Of a stretch of 64,000 nucleotides of DNA, positions 12,509 to 44,280 are shown piece after piece. This stretch comes from Synechococcus sp. (lineage in GTDB: Bacteria > Cyanobacteriota > Cyanobacteriia > PCC-6307 > Cyanobiaceae), in contig JBJBDC010000001.1 in NCBI GenBank assembly GCA_047285535.1, positions 1,440,136 through 1,504,135 of the forward strand. The letters run 5' to 3'. Position 1 is the first letter of the stretch, and each line of letters opens with the position of its first letter. Under the pieces are notes generated by a model that saw nothing but the letters and a program-made list of their open reading frames with translations, ran no database searches and was not told where the DNA came from. Position numbers and translations under genes: made by a program.

Positions 12509-12868
12509 TTAAGAATCTGACTCGACGATGTCCGAGTCTTCCAACGCATCCATCAGTGAAGAGCTAAGGCTATTATCAACAAGCTCATCATAAAGAAGAT
12601 CGAGGCCAATCAAAACGCGTTCTCGGTCGGAAAGATCTCCAATAATCCGACGAACGGGAGGCGGGAGAATTTTGGATAATGTCGGCGTTGCGAGAATTTT
12701 ATCTTCTTCCGCAAGCTGAGGATTTTTAAGGACATCAATAACTTTTAAGGCATAAACTCCCTTAAACTCAGTCTCAAGAATATTCCGAAGTGTCTTCAAT
12801 GCTCGCATTGAATTTGGCGTATTACCGGCAACATAAAGTTTGAGAATGTAGGTCTTACGTGGACTCAT
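12509..12868 (-). CDS. kaiB: Circadian clock protein KaiB
   Basis: [34 protein letters not shown]. Confidence 0.98.
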
Positions 12869-26727: not shown

Positions 26728-27309
26728 ATGACTCAATCCACAACCCAAGCCAAGATCAGCATCGCCACCGGACCTGCTGGTCGTGCCATGGCAGAAGCCA
26801 TGTCACCGGAGATGGTCAGCCAATTGCAGGCCCATCTCAATCTGGAACGGCAATCCTCTGCTGACTATTTCGCTGCAGCCGTCTGGTTTGCAGAGCGCGA
26901 ACTCACTGGTTTTGCTGAACATCTGCGTAATGAAGCCAAGCAGGAGCAGGAGCATGCCGCAAAATTCGCCGACTATCTGATCTCCCGGGGTCAAACCGTT
27001 GAACTCGATACGATCGAAGCACCTCGCCAGACATGGCCCGATCCAGAAGAGGTGATCGCCAACGTTTTCAAGATGGAAGCGGATGTCACCAGTTCTGTGC
27101 TGCAGCTGTATGCCACAGCAGAGCGCGATGTTGATCAACGCACAACGGTTTTCCTTGATCCCGTTGTTGATGATCAGCGAGCCTCAGAACATGAAGCCGC
27201 TTACCTGCTGGGCCGGGTGAAGTATGCCAATGGTGAGCGTGCGGCGATGATGATCATTGACGCCGAACTCAGAGAAGATGAAGCGGAACCCGCAACGCTT
27301 CAGGCTTAA
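26728..27309 (+). CDS. ftn: Ferritin (picocyanobacterial SynFtn-like type)
   Basis: IATGPAGRAMAE extension; ferroxidase ligands in LNLE, Y, EQEH, MEADV, DQ. Confidence 0.93.
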   Translation: MTQSTTQAKISIATGPAGRAMAEAMSPEMVSQLQAHLNLERQSSADYFAAAVWFAERELTGFAEHLRNEAKQEQEHAAKFADYLISRGQTVELDTIEAPRQTWPDPEEVIANVFKMEADVTSSVLQLYATAERDVDQRTTVFLDPVVDDQRASEHEAAYLLGRVKYANGERAAMMIIDAELREDEAEPATLQA

Positions 27310-27380
27310 GCCTCAGTTCAAGCTTCTTGAACAATGCGTTTTCAATGTGGTCTGAATACGGCATGGCCTTACAAATCAAC

Positions 27381-27407
27381 AAAAAACCCCGCTAACGGCG
27401 GGGTTTT
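27381..27407. terminator. Bidirectional terminator between the convergent ferritin and porin genes
   Basis: AAAAAACCCCGCTAACGGCGGGGTTTT. Confidence 0.85.
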
Positions 27408-27432
27408 CTAATCACTTCCCAATCGAAACTAA

Positions 27433-29142
27433 TTAAAAAGTGAATGTTGTCCTCATAAAACATCCCAATTGATTAAAGCTCCCATTACTGGTCGCCGTAA
27501 ATTGACCCAAGGGTCGGCTCAGGTAAAAGAGTGCTGGAGTCACTGTGATGTTGTCGGTGACTTGGAATCCATACCACCATTCCCAAGCATAATTTCCATC
27601 ATCAGGCGTTTCACCTCCGACCAGTGCAGTAGCAAAGGTTGTTTGGCCTACAGCCATTCCAGCTGAGTTTCCTTGGAGAAAGACATCCTCCCACTTAAGA
27701 GACACTTGCCATGATTGCGACGTCAATACGTAGTCATCTGGAATGTTGTCTTCTTTGAAGTTAGTGGTGTTAATACCCCAGCCTGCGCTGATTGCAGGAA
27801 TCCAACCAGAATCTTCAGGCTGCCAATACGCAGAAAGTGCAAAAGCATTCAGTGATTGGTCTACGTCTTGAAGATAACTTAATTGTGTGTAGGCAGTGGA
27901 ATAAGGAACCAACTCAGGGCGTTGAAGCCAGCTGTACACACCTGCAATCCCCCACTGCTCAGCTTGATAACCAATCTGAACCGTTCCTACACCGTTGGCA
28001 TTATCGGTGAGGATTCCACCTTCGCTTGGGTTGCTGACAGGTCCAGAACCAATGTCGGACACATATTGGAGACTTACAACCCAACCGTTTTTCTCAAAAT
28101 TCAATGCTGCGCCAGGGCCTTGAATTTTGTTGTAGGCCGCGGGCGCACCGTTGAGAGTAAAGACATCAAGCACTGTGTTGCCATCACCCTGTGGATAAGC
28201 AGAAGGCCACATCGGCATCATGTCGTCTTGACCGACTTGTGCACCAAAAATGAAAGTGAAATCACTTCCAATCGGAGTGGAATAAAAAATCTTATCGATA
28301 TAGACGGAATTACCGCCACCACCTGACTCTTCCGAATTTGATGCCACTTCAAGTGTTGAAAGTGTGGTTGGACCACCACCAAATGGTGAGCTGCCGAAAT
28401 TACCTGCACGCAGAGTTGTTGTTAAAAGATCCTTACCGGTGAAGCTAGTGTTGAAATTAATTTGGGTGTCGTAATTGAAGGTGGTGGCCCCATATCTAGT
28501 CTTGACATACTTGGAATATTTTTGCCTGGTTTGAAAATCTACAAAGTCGCTATCTGAAGCCAAGAGCAAACCGAAACCTGGATTACCTGTGTCGCCACCG
28601 TCGATTGGAAAAAGGTTGTTGATTTGAGCAACAACATCTGGTGTGAAACGGAAATCACCCCCGAAGTTGTTAGCACCGATGACAAAGCTAGTTTGACCAT
28701 CAAGCTTCGTAGTTGTAGAGAACTGAGTGGCTTCCAGTTCACCAACACGGGCTTCCAGTCCGTCCACACGGCCCTTGAGGATGGCGAGTTCCTTCTCGAA
28801 CTCTTTCATCAGGCGCTTGAGCTCGTCGGTCACTTCGGTGACGCGATCGAGACAGGCATTCAACAGAGCCGCCGCTTCAAAGCGGGTCATCGCCCTGTTG
28901 CCGCGGTAGGTGCCGTTGGGGTATCCAGCGACGCAGCCATAGCGTTCGATCAGGTTTCTCAGTGCCTGATAGGCCCAATCCGTGGGGTACACATCAGAAA
29001 ACTGAGTGATGCTGGTGACTTGCTCACCAGTGGCGGTGTAGTCAGAGACACCGTTGATGTTCAACTCAGTGGCGTTCGCAGCCATAGGGGCCAGAAGGCC
29101 CAGGGCTGCTGGGGCGACCAGCAGTTGACGAAATAGTTGCAA
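27433..29142 (-). CDS. SLH-domain outer membrane porin (Som/iron-uptake porin family)
   Basis: Signal peptide, FSDVYPTDWAYQAL...GYPNGTYRGNRAMTRFEAAA SLH domain, coiled coil, QFSTTTKL, beta-barrel ending TFTF; TTG start. Confidence 0.95.
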   Translation of the reverse strand: MQLFRQLLVAPAALGLLAPMAANATELNINGVSDYTATGEQVTSITQFSDVYPTDWAYQALRNLIERYGCVAGYPNGTYRGNRAMTRFEAAALLNACLDRVTEVTDELKRLMKEFEKELAILKGRVDGLEARVGELEATQFSTTTKLDGQTSFVIGANNFGGDFRFTPDVVAQINNLFPIDGGDTGNPGFGLLLASDSDFVDFQTRQKYSKYVKTRYGATTFNYDTQINFNTSFTGKDLLTTTLRAGNFGSSPFGGGPTTLSTLEVASNSEESGGGGNSVYIDKIFYSTPIGSDFTFIFGAQVGQDDMMPMWPSAYPQGDGNTVLDVFTLNGAPAAYNKIQGPGAALNFEKNGWVVSLQYVSDIGSGPVSNPSEGGILTDNANGVGTVQIGYQAEQWGIAGVYSWLQRPELVPYSTAYTQLSYLQDVDQSLNAFALSAYWQPEDSGWIPAISAGWGINTTNFKEDNIPDDYVLTSQSWQVSLKWEDVFLQGNSAGMAVGQTTFATALVGGETPDDGNYAWEWWYGFQVTDNITVTPALFYLSRPLGQFTATSNGSFNQLGCFMRTTFTF

Positions 29143-29147
29143 ATTGA

Positions 29148-29157
29148 ACTCTCACAC
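29148..29157 (-). promoter_or_regulatory. Degenerate Yfr1 sRNA target site in the porin 5' UTR
   Basis: mRNA GUGUGAGAGU ends 5 nt before the start codon; the full complement of the Yfr1 motif ACUCCUCACAC is GUGUGAGGAGU. Confidence 0.55.
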
Positions 29158-29175
29158 CAGAAGATTCAAAATGCA

Positions 29176-29190
29176 TCGCAATGATTCTAA
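29176..29190. promoter_or_regulatory. Weak Fur/Zur-family box candidate upstream of the porin
   Basis: TCGCAAT-G-ATTCTAA matches 9/14 of the 7-1-7 consensus. Confidence 0.35.
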
Positions 29191-29476
29191 TGACCAAAAC
29201 ATATAAACAGGCAGCTACAAATACTACAATTGGACTGATAAAAAGATCATTCACACAAGAATTAGTGAGCCCTAGCATTTCTCTAAGATGATCCGCGTGA
29301 GGCATCGCCCCCCTCAACAAGAAGAGAGAAAAGAGCTCGACCTAACAATCAACAATTACCATTGAATGATTTGCTACATGATCACAAAAGCAGACTTAAC
29401 AAGCCAAGTTAGAATCTCCAAAAGCGTACAAATCACTTTGACCAAAACCGAAGACTACAAGCATCTCACAAAAAAA

Positions 29477-29764
29477 ATGAAAGAGTTTGATAAATTTGAA
29501 TTCTATAATAATATCAACTTGCATCACAAGGAATACAGCATCGGAATTGCCCTTGCTCTCACACTAGGATGGTGTGGAGTTCACAGATTCTGGCTAGGGG
29601 ACTACAAAGGTGGGATTATTTACCTGGCATTCTTCTGGACTTTATTACCATTTTTTTTCTCAATAGTTGACGCGATCTGCATGAAAAAAACGTGTAAAAA
29701 AATAAACAACACTTATGCTGTTGGCGCCTTTAAAAAAGCCTCTCACTCTAATCGACTCACTTAA
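29477..29764 (+). CDS. TM2/NINE-domain membrane protein
   Basis: LALTLGWCGVHRFWLG...IIYLAFFWT; start uncertain (the ORF opens at 29366). Confidence 0.85.
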   Translation: MKEFDKFEFYNNINLHHKEYSIGIALALTLGWCGVHRFWLGDYKGGIIYLAFFWTLLPFFFSIVDAICMKKTCKKINNTYAVGAFKKASHSNRLT

Positions 29765-29855
29765 GCCATTAAAAACCTTAAGTGAAATTGCATTTCAAGT
29801 TTGATTTTATCCACACACAATTAGGAGGCTTAGCTTCTCAGTCGATACCAAATAT

Positions 29856-30389
29856 TTATGCAACAGCAGCAGAGTTGAGATTAGAAGCACCTTGCAAATT
29901 TGCTAAAAATGTACCATCAAAAAATTGCTGATCAAGCAAAAGCATTGCGGCAGTATTTGTATTAGCCAATCTCAGTCGTTTGCAGATAAAACGGGCTTCT
30001 GATTCTTCTTTCACCTGTTCATCAATAAACCAATCCAGCATAACCGTTGCAGGCCGGTGGTTGCAGCGCTCAGCAATACCATAAATATGATTAATTGAGG
30101 CTGTTACTTCTTTCTCCATAGAATAAACATTTGAGAACAAATCTTCTAAAGAGTTCCATTCACAAGCTGGGGCCTCAATCGATGGAAGCTCAACTTTTTC
30201 ATCATTATCCACAAGGAAAGTAATCATGCGGGATGCGTGGGTTCTTTCTTCATTACTTTTCGTTTCCATGTATGCAGAGAATCCAATCAGATCCTTTTCT
30301 CTTAGCCAGATGGACATCGCAAGATAGGTATGACTAGCTTGGAATTCGCAAGCCAGATGATTGTTAATAGCAGAAGTGAGTTCTTTCAT
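29856..30389 (-). CDS. ftn: Ferritin (FtnA-like type)
   Basis: HLACEFQASHTYLAM, EERTH, MEKEVT, LDWFIDEQVKEE; ATG 30389. Confidence 0.93.
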   Translation of the reverse strand: MKELTSAINNHLACEFQASHTYLAMSIWLREKDLIGFSAYMETKSNEERTHASRMITFLVDNDEKVELPSIEAPACEWNSLEDLFSNVYSMEKEVTASINHIYGIAERCNHRPATVMLDWFIDEQVKEESEARFICKRLRLANTNTAAMLLLDQQFFDGTFLANLQGASNLNSAAVA

Positions 30390-30497
30390 GAGAAAAACAA
30401 AATTACGAGACAAGAAGAAAAGAGTGAGACAAACTATTATCAAAGCATGCAATCCACCACGAACACAAAAGAGAAGTGCATGATTGATAACGTATTT

Positions 30498-32336
30498 TCA
30501 ACCAAATATTAAGCCCCAAGATTGATAAAAACTAAAGGCAACAACCCATGCCACTATTATTGATACAATAATAGAAAAAATAGTGAAGCGAGCCGACTTA
30601 GTTTCACCCCAAATTGTTGCGACTGTAGTCAAGCACGGTACATAAAGCAAGCTAAATAGACAGTAACTAAAACCTTGTTGGAAATTAATAACACCGCCCA
30701 AAGTTGTTCTCAAAGCATCACTTCCTTCTCCAAATCCATACATGGTAGCAACAGCAGCAAGCTGCACTTCCTTAGCCACAAAACCAATGATCAAAGATAC
30801 TGTTAGATATGGATTAATACCTAAGGGCGACATCAGTGGCTGAAAAAATGTTCCAATTCGTCCAGCATATGTATTCATTCCTTCAGCCCCTCCAGGGAAA
30901 TTAGTGAGATACCAAGTTATACATGTGCCGATAATCATGAATATGGCAAGGTTCCTCACAAAGGTTGTCATTTCACTCCAAACATTTAAGGCAACTTGCT
31001 TAAAAGTAGGAGTTCTATATGGAGGCAGTTCAATCACAAATGGATCTTTTGACTTAAATTGCCCGCTAAAATTAAATATCATGGCCAATACAAATGCAAC
31101 CACAAAACTAATGATATAAAGCAACCAAAGAGCAAAATAACCCGTACCAGGCAGTATGATTCCCAGAAAAAACACAAAAACCTGCAATCTGGCTGAGCAA
31201 AGAGCAAATGGTATAATTAAAATAGATAGTAATCTTTGAGTTTTAGATCTAATTGTTCTTGTGCCCATGATGGCTGGAACATTACATCCAAATCCGAACA
31301 GTTGAAGAACAAATCCTCGACCATCTAAACCCGCAGCACGCATCAGAGCATCCATAAGATATGCAGCTCTTGATAGATAACCACTATCTTCCAGAGCAGT
31401 CATAACAACAAAGAAGAAAGCTACTAAAGGAACAAATCCAAGCAATGCCGCGAAACCAGCATAAGGACCATTAATGATGAATTCACTAAAGCCCTTCGGG
31501 AGAAAAGAAAGAGAGGGCTCAATCACTGCGCCTTGAAGCCAGTCAGTAAAATTTCCTACTGGATCTTGCAAAGGCATCCCCACGAACCAAATCGCCGCAA
31601 ACACCGCGAGCATTGAGATAAAAAATATTGGCAGACCAACAACTCTATTTAATAAAATTGAATCCAATCGATTACTGAAAGTAGTGACATCCTCAGAAGG
31701 CATTTCAACACCTATTCGAGTCACTTCATCCATATCATCATCTGTAACCTTGTTAACTTTAAAAAATCCTGCTATATCATTACATTTGTAGGAATTGTCA
31801 AGAGTTTGCAATTGGTCCCAAATTCCCTGGACTGCCAATGCGCATCCACTTCCATATTTTGCGCTAATTGTAAAGACTGGCATTTTTAATTCATCCGCAA
31901 GCTCCTTAGTGTTGATTTTAACTCCAAAACGTTTCACTTCATCTGCCATATTCAACATCAATACGCATGGGAGACCCAATCTCTGAATTTGAAGCGGCAT
32001 CAAAATTTGCCGATCAATCTGAGCCGAATTAATAACACAAACAATAAGATCAAAATTATAGTTCTCTAAGAATTTTTGCACCACTAATTCATCTTCAGTA
32101 AAACCCTCTAGGTCATATATTCCGGGGAGATCAACAAATTCGTATGTTTTACCGTTGTAATCAAGATTTGCCTGCATGAAATCAACAGTCAAGCCTGGCC
32201 AGTTTGCAACTCCAGCATTGGCTTTAGTGACCGTATTAAAGAAAGTAGATTTGCCTGTATTTGGCTGCCCAATAAAAACAATTCGAGGGATTTTGTTTTT
32301 GGCCTGGGTTGATGAGGCAGGACTAGCAACAATCAT
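30498..32336 (-). CDS. feoB: Ferrous iron transporter B
   Basis: GQPNTGKS, NWPGLT, DLPG, NMAD, LEDSGYLSRAA, GFGCNVPA, ELPPYR, LYVPC. Confidence 0.96.
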   Translation of the reverse strand: MIVASPASSTQAKNKIPRIVFIGQPNTGKSTFFNTVTKANAGVANWPGLTVDFMQANLDYNGKTYEFVDLPGIYDLEGFTEDELVVQKFLENYNFDLIVCVINSAQIDRQILMPLQIQRLGLPCVLMLNMADEVKRFGVKINTKELADELKMPVFTISAKYGSGCALAVQGIWDQLQTLDNSYKCNDIAGFFKVNKVTDDDMDEVTRIGVEMPSEDVTTFSNRLDSILLNRVVGLPIFFISMLAVFAAIWFVGMPLQDPVGNFTDWLQGAVIEPSLSFLPKGFSEFIINGPYAGFAALLGFVPLVAFFFVVMTALEDSGYLSRAAYLMDALMRAAGLDGRGFVLQLFGFGCNVPAIMGTRTIRSKTQRLLSILIIPFALCSARLQVFVFFLGIILPGTGYFALWLLYIISFVVAFVLAMIFNFSGQFKSKDPFVIELPPYRTPTFKQVALNVWSEMTTFVRNLAIFMIIGTCITWYLTNFPGGAEGMNTYAGRIGTFFQPLMSPLGINPYLTVSLIIGFVAKEVQLAAVATMYGFGEGSDALRTTLGGVINFQQGFSYCLFSLLYVPCLTTVATIWGETKSARFTIFSIIVSIIVAWVVAFSFYQSWGLIFG

Positions 32337-40609: not shown

Positions 40610-40726
40610 TGAGCGGGAGCGCGCTGCAACAGTTCGTGATCACTAGACCCCCTAGGGCCTCATCCTCATCCCACCCCGTGATACAAGGACTTGGTGCGCT
40701 GTCTACGTCAGTCTCTGACATCTTTC

Positions 40727-41239
40727 ATGGCCTCTTTTTTCTCCACATTGCGTCGATCATTGAATCGACTGCTGATCGCCCTGCCAGTGCTGCTTGGACT
40801 GTTGATCAGTGCCCCCGCCCAGGCCGCCCAGTGGGATGCCGAGATCCTCACGGTGCCAGCTGACGGCGATGGCACCCTGGTCACCTTCAGTGAACAGGAA
40901 ATCAAGACAGGGCGGAAGGTGTTCAACGTCAGCTGCGGCACCTGCCACGCCGGCGGCATCACCAAAACCAACCAGAATGTGGGCTTGGATACTGAAACGC
41001 TTGCCCTGGCCACACCAGCCCGTGACAACGTTGCGTCTCTCGTGGATTACCTGCAAGACCCCACGTCCTATGACGGGGAATACAGCATCGCCGACTTGCA
41101 TCCCAGCATGCGCAGCCGCGATCTCTATCCCGCCATGCGCGATCTCACCGATGAGGATCTTCGCTTGATGTCTGGATACATCCTTGTAGCCCCCAAAGTC
41201 TTGGGTGTTGAATGGGGCGGCGGGAAAATTTACTTCTAA
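40727..41239 (+). CDS. psbV: Photosystem II cytochrome c550
   Basis: Signal peptide, CGTCH heme motif, PTSYDG, WGGGKIYF. Confidence 0.97.
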   Translation: MASFFSTLRRSLNRLLIALPVLLGLLISAPAQAAQWDAEILTVPADGDGTLVTFSEQEIKTGRKVFNVSCGTCHAGGITKTNQNVGLDTETLALATPARDNVASLVDYLQDPTSYDGEYSIADLHPSMRSRDLYPAMRDLTDEDLRLMSGYILVAPKVLGVEWGGGKIYF

Positions 41240-41279
41240 TCTTTTGATTAGATAATCACTCCACACAAAGAATCGGCCG

Positions 41280-41311: not shown

Positions 41312-41536
41312 ATGCATCGATAACGCATGTCAGCCAGCGACAAAAGCATCCCGAAGCTTGAGCCGAATATTTCCAACAACGAGACCAACCAAAGACTAAA
41401 ACGACAAGCCGATAAACACATATCAACCTACTTTAAACAAAATGTTACCACCTTGCGAAACAAAAATTTTAATCAGACTGCCTAACAATTCAAGATAAAT
41501 TAACTCCAGCAAAAGAAATTTGGAGTCTCTTCAACA

Positions 41537-42442
41537 ATGCTGTCTTCCACGTCAGTCATCACAAGCTTTGGCGGTGAACGCGAGACGAAGCCTTCTATCT
41601 CATTCAAGAGTGGACAGACTCAATCATCCAAGTCCGCAGCACTTAGCAATAGCGAATTCCAGCGAAGACAGTGCGAGGGAATGAAACTAGCGATCGGCCC
41701 TCGCCTGCACGATCAATGCGGGACCAAAGTCACTTTCGAGGAATTTCCAGACATCTCTCAGGAGGCACTAGAAAACGCGATAAGCGCTGCCTATCAACAC
41801 GTCTATGGCAATGCACATGTCATGGACAATGAGAGATCCACGTCTCTTGAAGCACAATTAAGAGATGGTCGCATTTCGATTCAAGATTTCGTGCGTGGGC
41901 TCGCAAAATCCGATTTCTACAAGAAAAACTTTTACGACACATGCTCACCAGAAAGAACGATTGAGCTTGATCTCAAACATCTTTTAGGCAGAACACCTCA
42001 TGATCAACGAGAGGTTGCGGAATACATTCAAATCCAAGCATCAAAAGGGCATAATGCTGTGATTGATTCAATAATTGACTCAGCTGAATATTCAGAAACC
42101 TTTGGACGGCACACTGTTCCCTACATGAGATCCTGGCTTTCGCAAGCAGGCACAGCCCAAGCGGCCTTCAACAGAACTGCTGCGATCTGCCTTGGATATG
42201 CATACAGCGACAAAGCTATCGGAATCAGCTCAACGCTAAGCAACGGCTTAAAAACAGGTCACGCCGATAGTATTGCGTTCCCGCATGCGTCAAAACTAAA
42301 TTTCAGGGGATCAAGCTTAATCCTCAAGGGAGGGAAGCCACCTGTATTGGTCAGCAAACTCGGCACGATTTTAACGATTGCCTGTTTAATCGAAGTGAGC
42401 AGAATCATTCTCACGATTGCAGCAAGCGCTATAACTTCTTAA
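41537..42442 (+). CDS. Phycobilisome linker polypeptide (phycoerythrin-linker-like) with a C-terminal hydrophobic tail
   Basis: AAYQHVYGN, FVRGLAKSDFY, KHLLGRTP, IDSAEY..FG...VPY linker domain; Cys-bearing N-terminal extension; hydrophobic C-terminus. Confidence 0.9.
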   Translation: MLSSTSVITSFGGERETKPSISFKSGQTQSSKSAALSNSEFQRRQCEGMKLAIGPRLHDQCGTKVTFEEFPDISQEALENAISAAYQHVYGNAHVMDNERSTSLEAQLRDGRISIQDFVRGLAKSDFYKKNFYDTCSPERTIELDLKHLLGRTPHDQREVAEYIQIQASKGHNAVIDSIIDSAEYSETFGRHTVPYMRSWLSQAGTAQAAFNRTAAICLGYAYSDKAIGISSTLSNGLKTGHADSIAFPHASKLNFRGSSLILKGGKPPVLVSKLGTILTIACLIEVSRIILTIAASAITS

Positions 42443-42457
42443 TCGGTTTTTCGAAAT

Positions 42458-42488
42458 ATAGGCCCTGGACAAAGCCTCCAGGGCCTAT
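42458..42488. terminator. 12-bp perfect hairpin after the linker gene
   Basis: ATAGGCCCTGGA-caaagcc-TCCAGGGCCTAT; no U tract. Confidence 0.5.
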
Positions 42489-42860
42489 GATCTCCACAAA
42501 AAGTTAATTCTCAATAGCACATCAGTCTTAAAAGAAGAGGCTCTATAGACAAAGCAAAGAGCCTAGATTATTTCAATGTGGGGAGTCTCTTCGATGCGAG
42601 CTTTTTGCATATTTGCACTCGCAAGGGTATTCAAGCAAAACAAAAGCCTGGAGAGTCTTCAATCGCATCAGCAGATCCCAGCTTTTATCGCTGACCAATT
42701 TAGAAGAGGTCAATAAAGACTCAGGCAAGAGAATTCCACCGAGCTCGAAGCAAAAAGAATGGAAGCACTGACCTGGTAAAATCCTCCAAATCACTCAATC
42801 AAGTTACGTAAAAATATTTATGAGACTTTAAGAGTGGTTGGGTTCTACAGCACTAAATCC

Positions 42861-43154
42861 ATGGCGAAAGGTTTCTGGATTCTTACAGGCAACATTCACA
42901 CTCCTCTTGGGATGGTTCCCTATATTAAGCAATTCACCTCTTGGCTCCCAAAAGTTGGGGCTCGGATGCTCGTTCGCGATCTTCAGGGTGATGTACGCGA
43001 AGGAGCACCAGGCTCAGTCAATATTATTGTTGAATTCAACTCAAAAGAGGATGCCGTCACTGCTTATGAGTCGAAAGAATACCAAGAACTGATTGATTTA
43101 AGAACTCAACATTCAGATCTTAACCTCACCATTACAGAAGAACTTATTGACTAA
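42861..43154 (+). CDS. DUF1330-like protein
   Basis: MAKGFW..., IVEFNSKEDAVTAYESKEYQ..IDLR pattern. Confidence 0.8.
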   Translation: MAKGFWILTGNIHTPLGMVPYIKQFTSWLPKVGARMLVRDLQGDVREGAPGSVNIIVEFNSKEDAVTAYESKEYQELIDLRTQHSDLNLTITEELID

Positions 43155-43463
43155 AAGAAGCTTCAAGCGAATCAAATTTCTTATTTAAGACATCGCTTCT
43201 TTCCAATTCAGCTCAAGAGATGCAACCAAGCACGCTCACTGACCATACTCAAAAAGCCTATTGAAACTTGACCTCTTCTATCATCCTCCAAGAGGATTCA
43301 CGCCCTAAGCAATTCAGAGTGAATTTCCAAAAGACCTTATGCCATTGCATTGGAGTGATGTCTTCATGCTCTCTTTGCGATCCAGCAAGCATTTCTCGAA
43401 TCAACTAAGTTTGATCTCATTGCATCCAGCCAACGAATCAAACCTTGGTTGGGCCTCCAACTT

Positions 43464-43877
43464 TTAATTCGTTGGCTTGTCCGCTGCGTCAGGAGACGAA
43501 GGTGAATGATTCGAAGGAACCATTGATTTTGGCTGACGGCTGTACCACCACTCCTGCAACTCTGGCGTCAATCGCATCGAAAAGAGTGTCAGCAAAGTCG
43601 AAGTTGGACGAGAACCAGGCTGGAGCAGCTCAACGGAATAGGAAGGACAGCGCCTGGACGCCAGATCTGCCACAAAACGACGACCAATTCGGCGCCAACT
43701 CGGCTCCTTGCTACGCCAAGCCAAACGACAACAAGGCCAAGGCAACTCCTCACGGTCAAACAAACGGCAACAAGGACCTATCACCCGAAAGCTGTACTGC
43801 CCTCCTGGACTGGCATGCACCGTGCCATGCCCAAGCAATGCTTGAACATCAGACCGAAGCGCAGGAACAGGTGTCAA
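43464..43877 (-). CDS. Hypothetical protein downstream of petF
   Basis: GPCCRLFDREELPWPCCRL.W..KEPSW; recalled as a picocyanobacterial petF neighbour. Confidence 0.7.
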   Translation of the reverse strand: MTPVPALRSDVQALLGHGTVHASPGGQYSFRVIGPCCRLFDREELPWPCCRLAWRSKEPSWRRIGRRFVADLASRRCPSYSVELLQPGSRPTSTLLTLFSMRLTPELQEWWYSRQPKSMVPSNHSPSSPDAADKPTN

Positions 43878-43912
43878 AGCGATGGTCGAAAACTTAAAAC
43901 TGCATTCACATT

Positions 43913-43980: not shown

Positions 43981-44280
43981 TCAATACAGCTCTTCTTCAG
44001 CGTGGGTTTTGATGGTGCAATCTGAAGTGGGGTAGGCCACACAAGTCAAAACGAAACCAGCTTCGATCTGGTCGTCGTCCAGGAAGCTCTGATCAGACTG
44101 ATCAACAGTGCCGGCAGTGAGTTTGCCTGCACAAGTGGAGCAGGCTCCTGCACGGCAGGAATAGGGCAAATCAATGCCCTGCTCTTCAGCAGCATCGAGG
44201 ATGTACTGATCGTCAGGAACTTCGATGGTCTTGTTGAGGCCTTCGCTCTCGCTGACCAGGGTGACCTTATAAGAAGCCAT
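43981..44280 (-). CDS. petF: Ferredoxin [2Fe-2S]
   Basis: [13 protein letters not shown]...LTCVAYP. Confidence 0.98.

Follow-up and report, generated by a model that had tools for sequence, protein, structure and literature searches.

MpeF, a phycoerythrin II-type linker of marine Synechococcus, carries a C-terminal tail homologous to that of CpcL

Domain organization of the linker

We analyzed a 64,000-nucleotide stretch of the genome of Synechococcus sp. (assembly GCA_047285535.1, contig JBJBDC010000001.1), hereafter the window, and focused on a gene at 41537..42442 of the forward strand (TAA stop included). On the basis of the listing of open reading frames (ORFs), Pfam, and its homologues, this gene encodes a 301-aa phycobilisome linker of the phycoerythrin II (PE-II) type with a CpcL-type C-terminal tail, and we identify it below as mpeF. 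The initial annotation of the window, made from the letters alone, had delimited the same ORF, which does run from ATG to TAA and specify 301 aa. A GGAG at 41522-41525 lies 11 nt upstream of the ATG, and the N terminus MLSSTS.IT.FGGER is kept in homologues, with M1, S6, F11, G12, and E14 nearly invariant among 42 sequences. Out of 1829 candidates, the homologue search retained 116 at an E value of <= 0.001; since, in addition, the gene order is kept in 4/4 close loci (see below), the ORF is not a chance one.

An extension of 73 aa precedes the linker domain. It contains a two-Cys segment, EFQRRQCEGMKLAIGPRLHDQC (aa 40-61; 41654..41719, + strand), in which Cys46 is encoded at 41672-41674 and Cys61 at 41717-41719. 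The C-x14-C spacing, as in PE-II linkers, makes this a putative double thioether site for phycourobilin and is common to MpeD (N-terminal half), MpeC, and MpeE of the same genome. According to the accessible portions of Six et al. 2007 and Grebert et al. 2022, the two Cys of PE-II linkers carry a doubly linked phycourobilin. The initial annotation had pointed out the two Cys of the extension, correctly, and had compared this N terminus to MpeE; the Cys spacing is indeed shared with MpeE, but the comparison was imprecise, as the nearest classes are MpeF and the N-terminal half of MpeD.

The linker domain, also present in that annotation, is a PF00427 domain at aa 74-198 (41756..42130, + strand; Pfam E value of 5e-47). 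Its score of 159.5 bits, against a gathering cutoff of 28.7, places the protein among the phycobilisome linkers, and its predicted local distance difference test (pLDDT) values in the AlphaFold2 model are 76 to 93. In linkers, this domain occupies the central cavity of the phycobiliprotein hexamer. It is followed by a flexible, low-confidence spacer of about 66 to 70 aa (aa 199-264; 42131..42328, + strand) resembling the segment after the first linker domain of MpeD.

We built a linker-domain tree with IQ-TREE (39 rows, 146 columns) from 29 of the 116 matches, picked by hand, together with the paralogues of the genome itself. A branch with 100/100 support separates CpcG1, CpcL, and CpcG3 from the rest, while MpeF falls within a 96/94 clade of tail-bearing forms (starred in the tree), inside a 33-row PE-II set (87/77) that also contains the MpeD N-terminal half, MpeC, and MpeE. 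Searching the Protein Data Bank with phmmer gave about 150 bits for rod linkers and 80 to 104 bits for CpcG/CpcL. A CpcG-type identity was rejected, the NCBIfam CpcG1-4 models reaching only 87 to 106 bits against cutoffs of 420 to 440, with no equivalog. Judged by these comparisons, the linker domain of MpeF is of the PE-II type and not of the CpcG or phycoerythrin I type. The initial annotation had named grouping of the whole protein with CpcG2/CpcL as the outcome that would speak against it; in the tree, the CpcG group is split off.

After the spacer, the protein reads GGKPPVLVSKLGTILTIACLIEVSRIILTIAASAITS, with a GGKPP hinge beginning at aa 265. Profile, alignment, and AlphaFold2 together define here a CpcL-type tail (aa 265-301; 42329..42439, + strand) with K274 and a predicted single helix, 270-300. 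The model, for which 42 homologues were used, averages a pLDDT of 64 and contains one uninterrupted 31-residue helix at these positions (pLDDT of 72 to 84), whereas the N-terminal extension and the spacer are of low confidence, with pLDDT values of <50 over 197-231 and 251-267. G283, E286 (42392-42394), R289 (42401-42403), and S297 all lie within the predicted helix.

Kyte-Doolittle windows of 19 residues exceed 1.6 only at starts 269-282, with a maximum of 2.12, and the highest window outside the tail is 0.79. The hydrophobic tail announced by the initial annotation is thus real, and it is the only hydrophobic part of the protein. On the Eisenberg scale (standard values), the tail has a mean hydrophobicity of about 0.5 and a moment of 0.05 to 0.26 (about 0.55 and 0.16, respectively, over the 26 residues after K274). 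For the helix as modeled, such hydrophobicity with a low moment is the pattern of a membrane-spanning helix and not of a surface helix.

Homology of the C-terminal tail

We derived a profile from 39 unique homologue tails, with the protein itself omitted, and searched the six-frame translation of the genome, which has 59,193 ORFs of 30 aa or more. The profile recovered mpeF (5.4e-17) and the genome's own CpcL (5e-05), the next match being at 0.093. It also matched the CpcL tails of 4/4 other strains, whose E values, after adjustment to a search space of equal size, run from 4.7e-09 to 5.2e-05. In a gapless alignment of 48 columns made from seven MpeF and five CpcL tails, all 12 have E286 and R289, and P268, K274, G283, and S297 are conserved at >=90%. 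The MpeF tail is therefore significantly and specifically homologous in sequence to the tails of marine CpcL (CpcGII) and represents the same module. Both the likeness to CpcL/CpcG2 and the chimeric makeup proposed by the initial annotation hold at this level, the protein joining a PE-II-type N terminus and linker domain to a CpcL-type tail.

The 48-column profile was then searched against 1.84 billion representative proteins (E value of <= 0.001). It matched 29 of them, at the C terminus in every case. All six matches of at least 227 aa carry PF00427 (P0028 by precomputed annotation, the other five by scan), and a PF00427 scan of 10 matches left 7 above the cutoff, 1 below, and 2 without the domain. 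Most of the matches shorter than 227 aa look like gene fragments. Since all long matches are phycobilisome linkers, the module is specific to this type of protein. With the tail removed, two of the long matches are CpcL-like, and for P0218, P0221, and P0222 the identity to the linkers of the genome does not exceed 36%. These three, of 227 to 252 aa and with the same E/R-marked tail, make up a divergent PF00427 linker class, one cluster of which includes proteins from metagenome-assembled genomes (MAGs) of the sponge symbiont Aphanocapsa feldmannii. As far as sequence goes, three or more classes of linker domain bear this tail: CpcL, MpeF, and the divergent class of sponge-symbiont MAGs.

Identity of the gene and linker inventory

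The top named homologue is a 301-aa protein of CC9311 (WP_011620161), with 85% identity over 100% coverage. In the accessible part of Six et al. 2007, mpeF is a putative PE-II linker gene unlinked to the others, carried by CC9311, BL107, and CC9902, and Table 2 of that paper lists it as the only unlinked PE-II-type linker of CC9311. The counterparts in RS9916 and RCC307 were named mpeG (Six et al. 2007). The text of the same paper once speaks of the "mpeF gene of RS9916," whereas RS9916 comes under mpeG both in Table 2 and where the names are assigned; this inconsistency should be kept in mind when reading the mass spectrometry result on RS9916 that we discuss below.

The genome contains 14 PF00427 matches in 10 genes: apcE (four matches), the genes for MpeD (two), MpeC-like, MpeE-like, CpeC, CpeE, CpcG1, CpcL/CpcGII, and CpcG3, and mpeF. 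The last of these, at genome position 1,481,672, lies outside the rod region, whose linkers are at 2,843,437-2,856,027. The full-length identity of 85% to the CC9311 protein, the status of the latter as the sole unlinked PE-II-type linker of that strain, and elimination of the nine other linker genes together identify the gene, by sequence, as mpeF. In the accessible part of Table S2 of Grebert et al. 2022, to which all our references to this table apply, MpeF is Cyanorak cluster CK_00008031, and UW140 and GEYO, which have relatives of the protein, appear as mpeF carriers. The guess of the initial annotation that the gene might match a named but little-studied Mpe paralogue proved right, the paralogue being the MpeF of Six et al. 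2007.

The mpeF family is thus catalogued yet uncharacterized. We found no description of the tail in the searchable literature naming mpeF, a scope outside which most subscription journals fall. The word "hydrophobic" does not occur in the text of Six et al. 2007, nor do "hydrophobic," "transmembrane," or "membrane" in the main text of Grebert et al. 2022, and the remaining searchable papers that contain mpeF, phycoerythrin, and linker merely list the gene. The literature on CpcL in marine Synechococcus, on mpeG with cpcL, and on ppeC did not describe such a tail either. Gain and loss of the hydrophobic helix are reported as frequent within the CpcG/CpcL family, and the accessible part of that work does not mention transfer onto a phycoerythrin linker. 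MpeF is a known gene product whose CpcL-type tail is apparently undescribed in the searchable literature.

Genomic context and expression

Upstream of mpeF lies psbV (40691-41239; TIGR03045, E value of 4.6e-74); downstream, beyond two further ORFs, lies petF (43981-44280, - strand; TIGR02008, E value of 3.4e-53). The initial annotation described the gene as sitting alone between psbV and petF; the flanks are right, but the two ORFs in between were overlooked. The first encodes a 106-aa DUF1330 protein (42834..43154, + strand) that adjoins mpeF in 4/4 clade-I-type loci and has no known link to it. The second, of 150 aa and without a family (43445..43897, + strand), is 58 to 63% conserved in 4/4 loci and is a candidate coding ORF; an antisense ORF of 137 aa overlaps it, and either strand may be the coding one. 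No other phycobilisome gene occurs among the window ORFs that were scanned, which lie beyond position 12,800, and the remark of the initial annotation that none is nearby thus stands. The closest further PF00427 gene of the genome, apcE, is some 46 kb away on the downstream side, beyond the end of the 64-kb window. Upstream of mpeF, 26728-32336 of the window holds an iron-handling cluster with two ferritin-family genes, an OprB/SLH porin, a TM2-domain protein, and feoB.

Fifteen nucleotides past the mpeF stop, a 13-bp hairpin (42457..42489, + strand; -25.4 kcal/mol, z -4.2) represents a likely terminator or 3' stabilizer. It was missed by the consensus terminator scan because it has no T run. 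Another hairpin is located after psbV, and with one after each of the two genes, mpeF looks monocistronic. A sub-threshold Rfam hit of BjrC68 on the psbV terminator hairpin (26.7 bits against 39) was taken as chance. Consensus promoter and terminator scans remained at chance level, with 4 hits against 3.9 expected and 6 against 3.3 expected, respectively. Upstream of the gene, a 39-nt block, TTTAAA..CACCTTGCGAAAC..AAATTT (41432..41470, + strand), is conserved in 5/5 clade-I-type upstream sequences, while the spacer around it is otherwise variable; it may be a promoter or operator. The genome holds no second exact copy of CACCTTGCGAAAC, and copies with one or two mismatches show no pattern near phycobilisome genes. 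Short contigs from three metatranscriptome libraries (shares of 0.05 to 0.08) cover 41518-42110 and a piece near 41240-41273, and none of these libraries yielded contigs on the DUF1330 or the 150-aa ORF.

In 4/4 public loci with an orthologue at least 74% identical (L015 to L018, of which L015 stops inside prmA), the genes follow the order spoIID-rnz-psbV-mpeF-DUF1330-orf150-petF-prmA-serA. In these loci, psbV, petF, and serA are 96 to 99% identical and mpeF 74 to 80%. Two other lineages (L019 and L020) have mpeF in quite different neighborhoods, without the DUF1330 and 150-aa ORFs, in agreement with the "clade-specific location" recorded for the gene in Grebert et al. 2022, Table S2. No tRNA gene flanking the mpeF cassette was found. 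The mpeF stretch has a G+C content of 0.435, against about 0.52 to 0.58 in the flanks and 0.437 in the rod region. We considered this low value as a sign of a foreign island and rejected it: the genome mean is 0.506 (standard deviation of 0.059) and 20% of 900-bp windows are equally low, so that the composition of mpeF is unremarkable by itself.

The rod-region-like G+C content, 0.467 against flanks of 0.52 to 0.58, would nevertheless fit a transferred cassette, and no expression data from cultured strains were found. Both points would suit a view of mpeF as the remnant, silent or in decay, of an event in which an mpe gene recombined with cpcL, its tail having no function. The conservation data make this very improbable. 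Intact MpeF-type ORFs of conserved length, with the tail motif kept, occur across clades at 40 to 86% identity, the gene order is preserved in the four loci above, and both the N terminus and the upstream block are conserved. The metatranscriptome contigs on the ORF add weak support against a relic.

Table S2 of Grebert et al. 2022 also notes, for clade I, that mpeF lies <20 kb upstream of the chromatic acclimation island CA4-A. No AraC or lyase gene was present among the scanned ORFs within 20 kb on either side of mpeF. A CA4-A-like island is located at about 2,764,500-2,769,200, 1.28 Mb away, and comprises a Nif11-domain gene (107 aa), a 344-aa ORF without a Pfam match, an AraC-type regulator (333 aa), and a HEAT-repeat lyase (413 aa). 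The distance to CA4-A is a note on location and not a defining trait of mpeF. In our count from Table S2, part 2, the gene occurs in 16/56 pigment type 3 (PT3) strains, namely, in 16/20 strains with a CA4-A suffix (3dA, 3cA, and 3aA) and 0/36 others, a count in which phylogeny is a confounder, the carriers being members of clades I, IV, CRD1, and XVI.

Related linkers and their tails

We sorted the 116 MpeF matches by type of C terminus. The tail of MpeF, which we call tail A, is found in 51 of them (the protein of the window included), and a longer one, tail B, in 23, among them the RS9916 protein, MpeG. Nine matches have a CpcD-like end of the MpeD type, three an MpeC-like and three an MpeE-like end, and 27 are truncated or end otherwise. 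A tail-B profile matched 3/4 CpcL tails of other strains (5e-05 to 1.6e-03; the fourth at 0.71). In this genome it found nothing significant among the ORFs and left the own CpcL unmatched, the best E value of 0.12 belonging to an unrelated multi-helix membrane ORF. In the linker-domain tree, P0018, with tail B, nests beside P0017, with tail A, in a three-row clade (99/96). The presence of a tail-B protein inside a tail-A clade suggests, at the sequence level, that tails have been exchanged between near-sister MpeF-type proteins, recently in the case of P0018 and P0017.

P0068, a Prochlorococcus-labelled MAG protein of 287 aa, and its relative P0069, of 298 aa, combine the Cys segment with a PE-II-type domain and end in a third, unrelated, very hydrophobic tail, with Kyte-Doolittle maxima of 2.59 and 2.34, respectively. 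A Prochlorococcus-labelled sister form, P0071, has a CpcD-like end instead. Linkers of the P0068/P0069 type may correspond to PpeC, the phycoerythrin linker of Prochlorococcus. CpcG3 of the genome studied here (478,618-479,379, - strand) also ends hydrophobic, in ...LKIWILTLSIIIPGIAWISILILRTTISIN, and is unmatched by the tail-A profile. Going by their sequences, three linkers of this genome bear a tail, and these tails are of two unrelated types.

Some tail-A forms, of 259 aa, lack the entire Cys segment. We considered MpeH for these forms on the basis of gene order in L019 and dropped it, as no ggt gene is nearby. Their cluster contains the GEYO protein and GEYO is an mpeF carrier in Table S2 (Grebert et al. 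2022), and we therefore assign the 259-aa form to a CRD1-type MpeF.

That the CRD1 forms lost the bilin-binding Cys and yet keep the tail would suit a different kind of protein, namely, a transient membrane-bound factor for assembly, storage, or turnover of PE-II subunits, or a photoprotective sink. The patchy, lineage-specific distribution of mpeF and its differing location between clades would suit it as well, as would the failure to detect relatives in phycobilisome preparations (Six et al. 2007). The PF00427 domain, in contrast, is complete, and 33 of its columns do not vary among 42 sequences, as in structural linkers, and Pfam and NCBIfam scans found no catalytic or regulatory domain in MpeF. 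We consider such a role quite unlikely.

Discussion

We propose, giving it about an even chance and reasoning largely by analogy, that MpeF is a membrane anchor, possibly at photosystem I (PSI), for PE-II discs that bypass the allophycocyanin core. The PF00427 domain would nucleate or occupy a PE-II hexamer, and the tail-anchored helix would insert into the thylakoid membrane, with the N terminus in the cytoplasm and lysines ahead of the helix. The helix could pack against a partner via the conserved G283, E286, R289, and S297; since these E/R/G/S positions are shared, the tail may use the docking site of marine CpcL. PSI would be the leading candidate for this partner by analogy with the solved PSI-CpcL-phycobilisome complex of Anabaena. 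PE-II discs would thus be held at the membrane without the rod base of phycocyanin and phycoerythrin I and without the allophycocyanin core.

The relatives in RS9916 and RCC307 were undetected by mass spectrometry in isolated phycobilisomes, for which Six et al. (2007) offered conditional expression or "inherent biochemical properties." This non-detection is consistent with a membrane anchor. The same authors propose a conditional swap for another PE-II linker, and on that basis MpeF would be an ordinary rod linker of the hemidiscoidal phycobilisome, replacing, for example, MpeC or MpeE, with no core-less antenna; its tail would do no more than fasten rods, or entire phycobilisomes, at the surface of the thylakoid, or else pack inside the complex. 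The close resemblance of its linker domain and spacer to the N-terminal half of MpeD points in this direction, as does the report of marine CpcGII, with the same tail, in the phycobilisome fraction of WH8102 (Six et al. 2007). The occurrence of mpeF in 16/20 CA4-A strains and 0/36 other PT3 strains in the accessible table further hints at chromatic acclimation of normal rods. Against an ordinary rod linker stand the absence of the RS9916 and RCC307 relatives from isolated phycobilisomes and the fact that the tail otherwise occurs on CpcL-type linkers, the CpcL of Anabaena forming core-less rods on PSI. Furthermore, E, R, G, and S are strictly conserved between MpeF and CpcL, which suggests a specific shared docking partner and not a generic tether. 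On balance, we find this alternative unlikely.

Several points weigh against a membrane anchor for PE-II discs. E286 and R289, in the middle of the helix, are costly for a lone transmembrane segment, and the emission of PE-II overlaps poorly with the spectrum of chlorophyll a. The tail of marine CpcL could not be connected with the helix of the solved CpcL chains: phmmer alignments of the CpcL of the genome end at about residue 190 to 193, before the tail, so that sequence gives no link between the MpeF tail and the solved transmembrane helix. MpeF has a spacer of about 70 aa, against 12 aa in the CpcL of Anabaena, according to the accessible part of the structural work. The linker bilin is not essential to the family, as the CRD1-type 259-aa forms lack the Cys segment. 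Transcription of mpeF has weak support from the metatranscriptome, the libraries of which possibly contain DNA. Finally, what mass spectrometry failed to detect in RS9916 and RCC307 were products of tail-B genes and not a tail-A MpeF, and a CpcL-type tail is compatible with residence in the phycobilisome, given the CpcGII found in the WH8102 fraction (Six et al. 2007).

A broader possibility, which we put forward tentatively and as doubtful, is that MpeF, MpeG, and the tail-bearing Prochlorococcus linkers form a widespread and overlooked membrane-anchored class that builds small, allophycocyanin-free, phycourobilin-rich phycoerythrin antennae on a photosystem. Tail A would dock by the same E/R-marked helix as marine CpcL. 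Prochlorococcus phycoerythrin is membrane associated, and such a class, if it exists, would explain this association as well as the absence of these linkers from isolated phycobilisomes.

Marine Synechococcus are among the most abundant phototrophs, and PE-II underlies their capture of blue-green light. If the MpeF tail truly anchors the protein to the membrane or to PSI, some of the PE-II could feed a photosystem directly, outside the classical phycobilisome, which would alter models of antenna size, of the balance between PSI and photosystem II, and of chromatic acclimation. The gene has been without a function since it was named in 2007, and the tail supplies a concrete hypothesis. As a portable module, the tail also represents a case of domain shuffling in antenna evolution.

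Comparison with known systems

MpeF of CC9311 has the same length as the protein described here, is 85% identical to it, is likewise encoded outside the rod region, and has the same MpeD-like N terminus. The clade I genes of Grebert et al. 2022 differ in location, lying <20 kb upstream of the CA4-A island in the accessible table, whereas here the CA4-A-like island is 1.28 Mb off.

MpeD (in its N-terminal half), MpeC, and MpeE share the C-x14-C segment and the PE-II-type PF00427 domain with MpeF. However, MpeD ends CpcD-like, MpeC in ...RPFG, and MpeE in a hydrophilic sequence, and all of them are without the hydrophobic tail. MpeG (RS9916 EAU74453.1, 312 aa) is closer in this respect: like MpeF, it is an unlinked PE-II-type linker with a Cys segment and a hydrophobic extension from GGKPP, although its tail B is longer and reads ...KLWRGLALVGGAHLAGML...FLGL. 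P0068, labelled Prochlorococcus, and the related P0069 resemble MpeF in their Cys segment and PE-II-type domain, while the sequence of their tail is unrelated.

The PSI-associated CpcL (also CpcG2, CpcGII, or CpcG3) resembles MpeF in that a hydrophobic helix at the C terminus follows its PF00427 domain. Of the features of CpcL, MpeF has this helix, by prediction, and lacks the CpcG-type PF00427 domain, and it carries in addition the two-Cys N-terminal extension of about 73 aa. CpcL has been solved in the PSI-CpcL-phycobilisome of Anabaena (Mao et al. 2026) and in the CpcL-phycobilisome of Synechocystis. In the accessible part of the Anabaena study, the C-terminal helix, Asn205-Phe237, is transmembrane, lies between PsaA and PsaB/PsaM, and keeps the core-less rod on PSI (Mao et al. 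2026).

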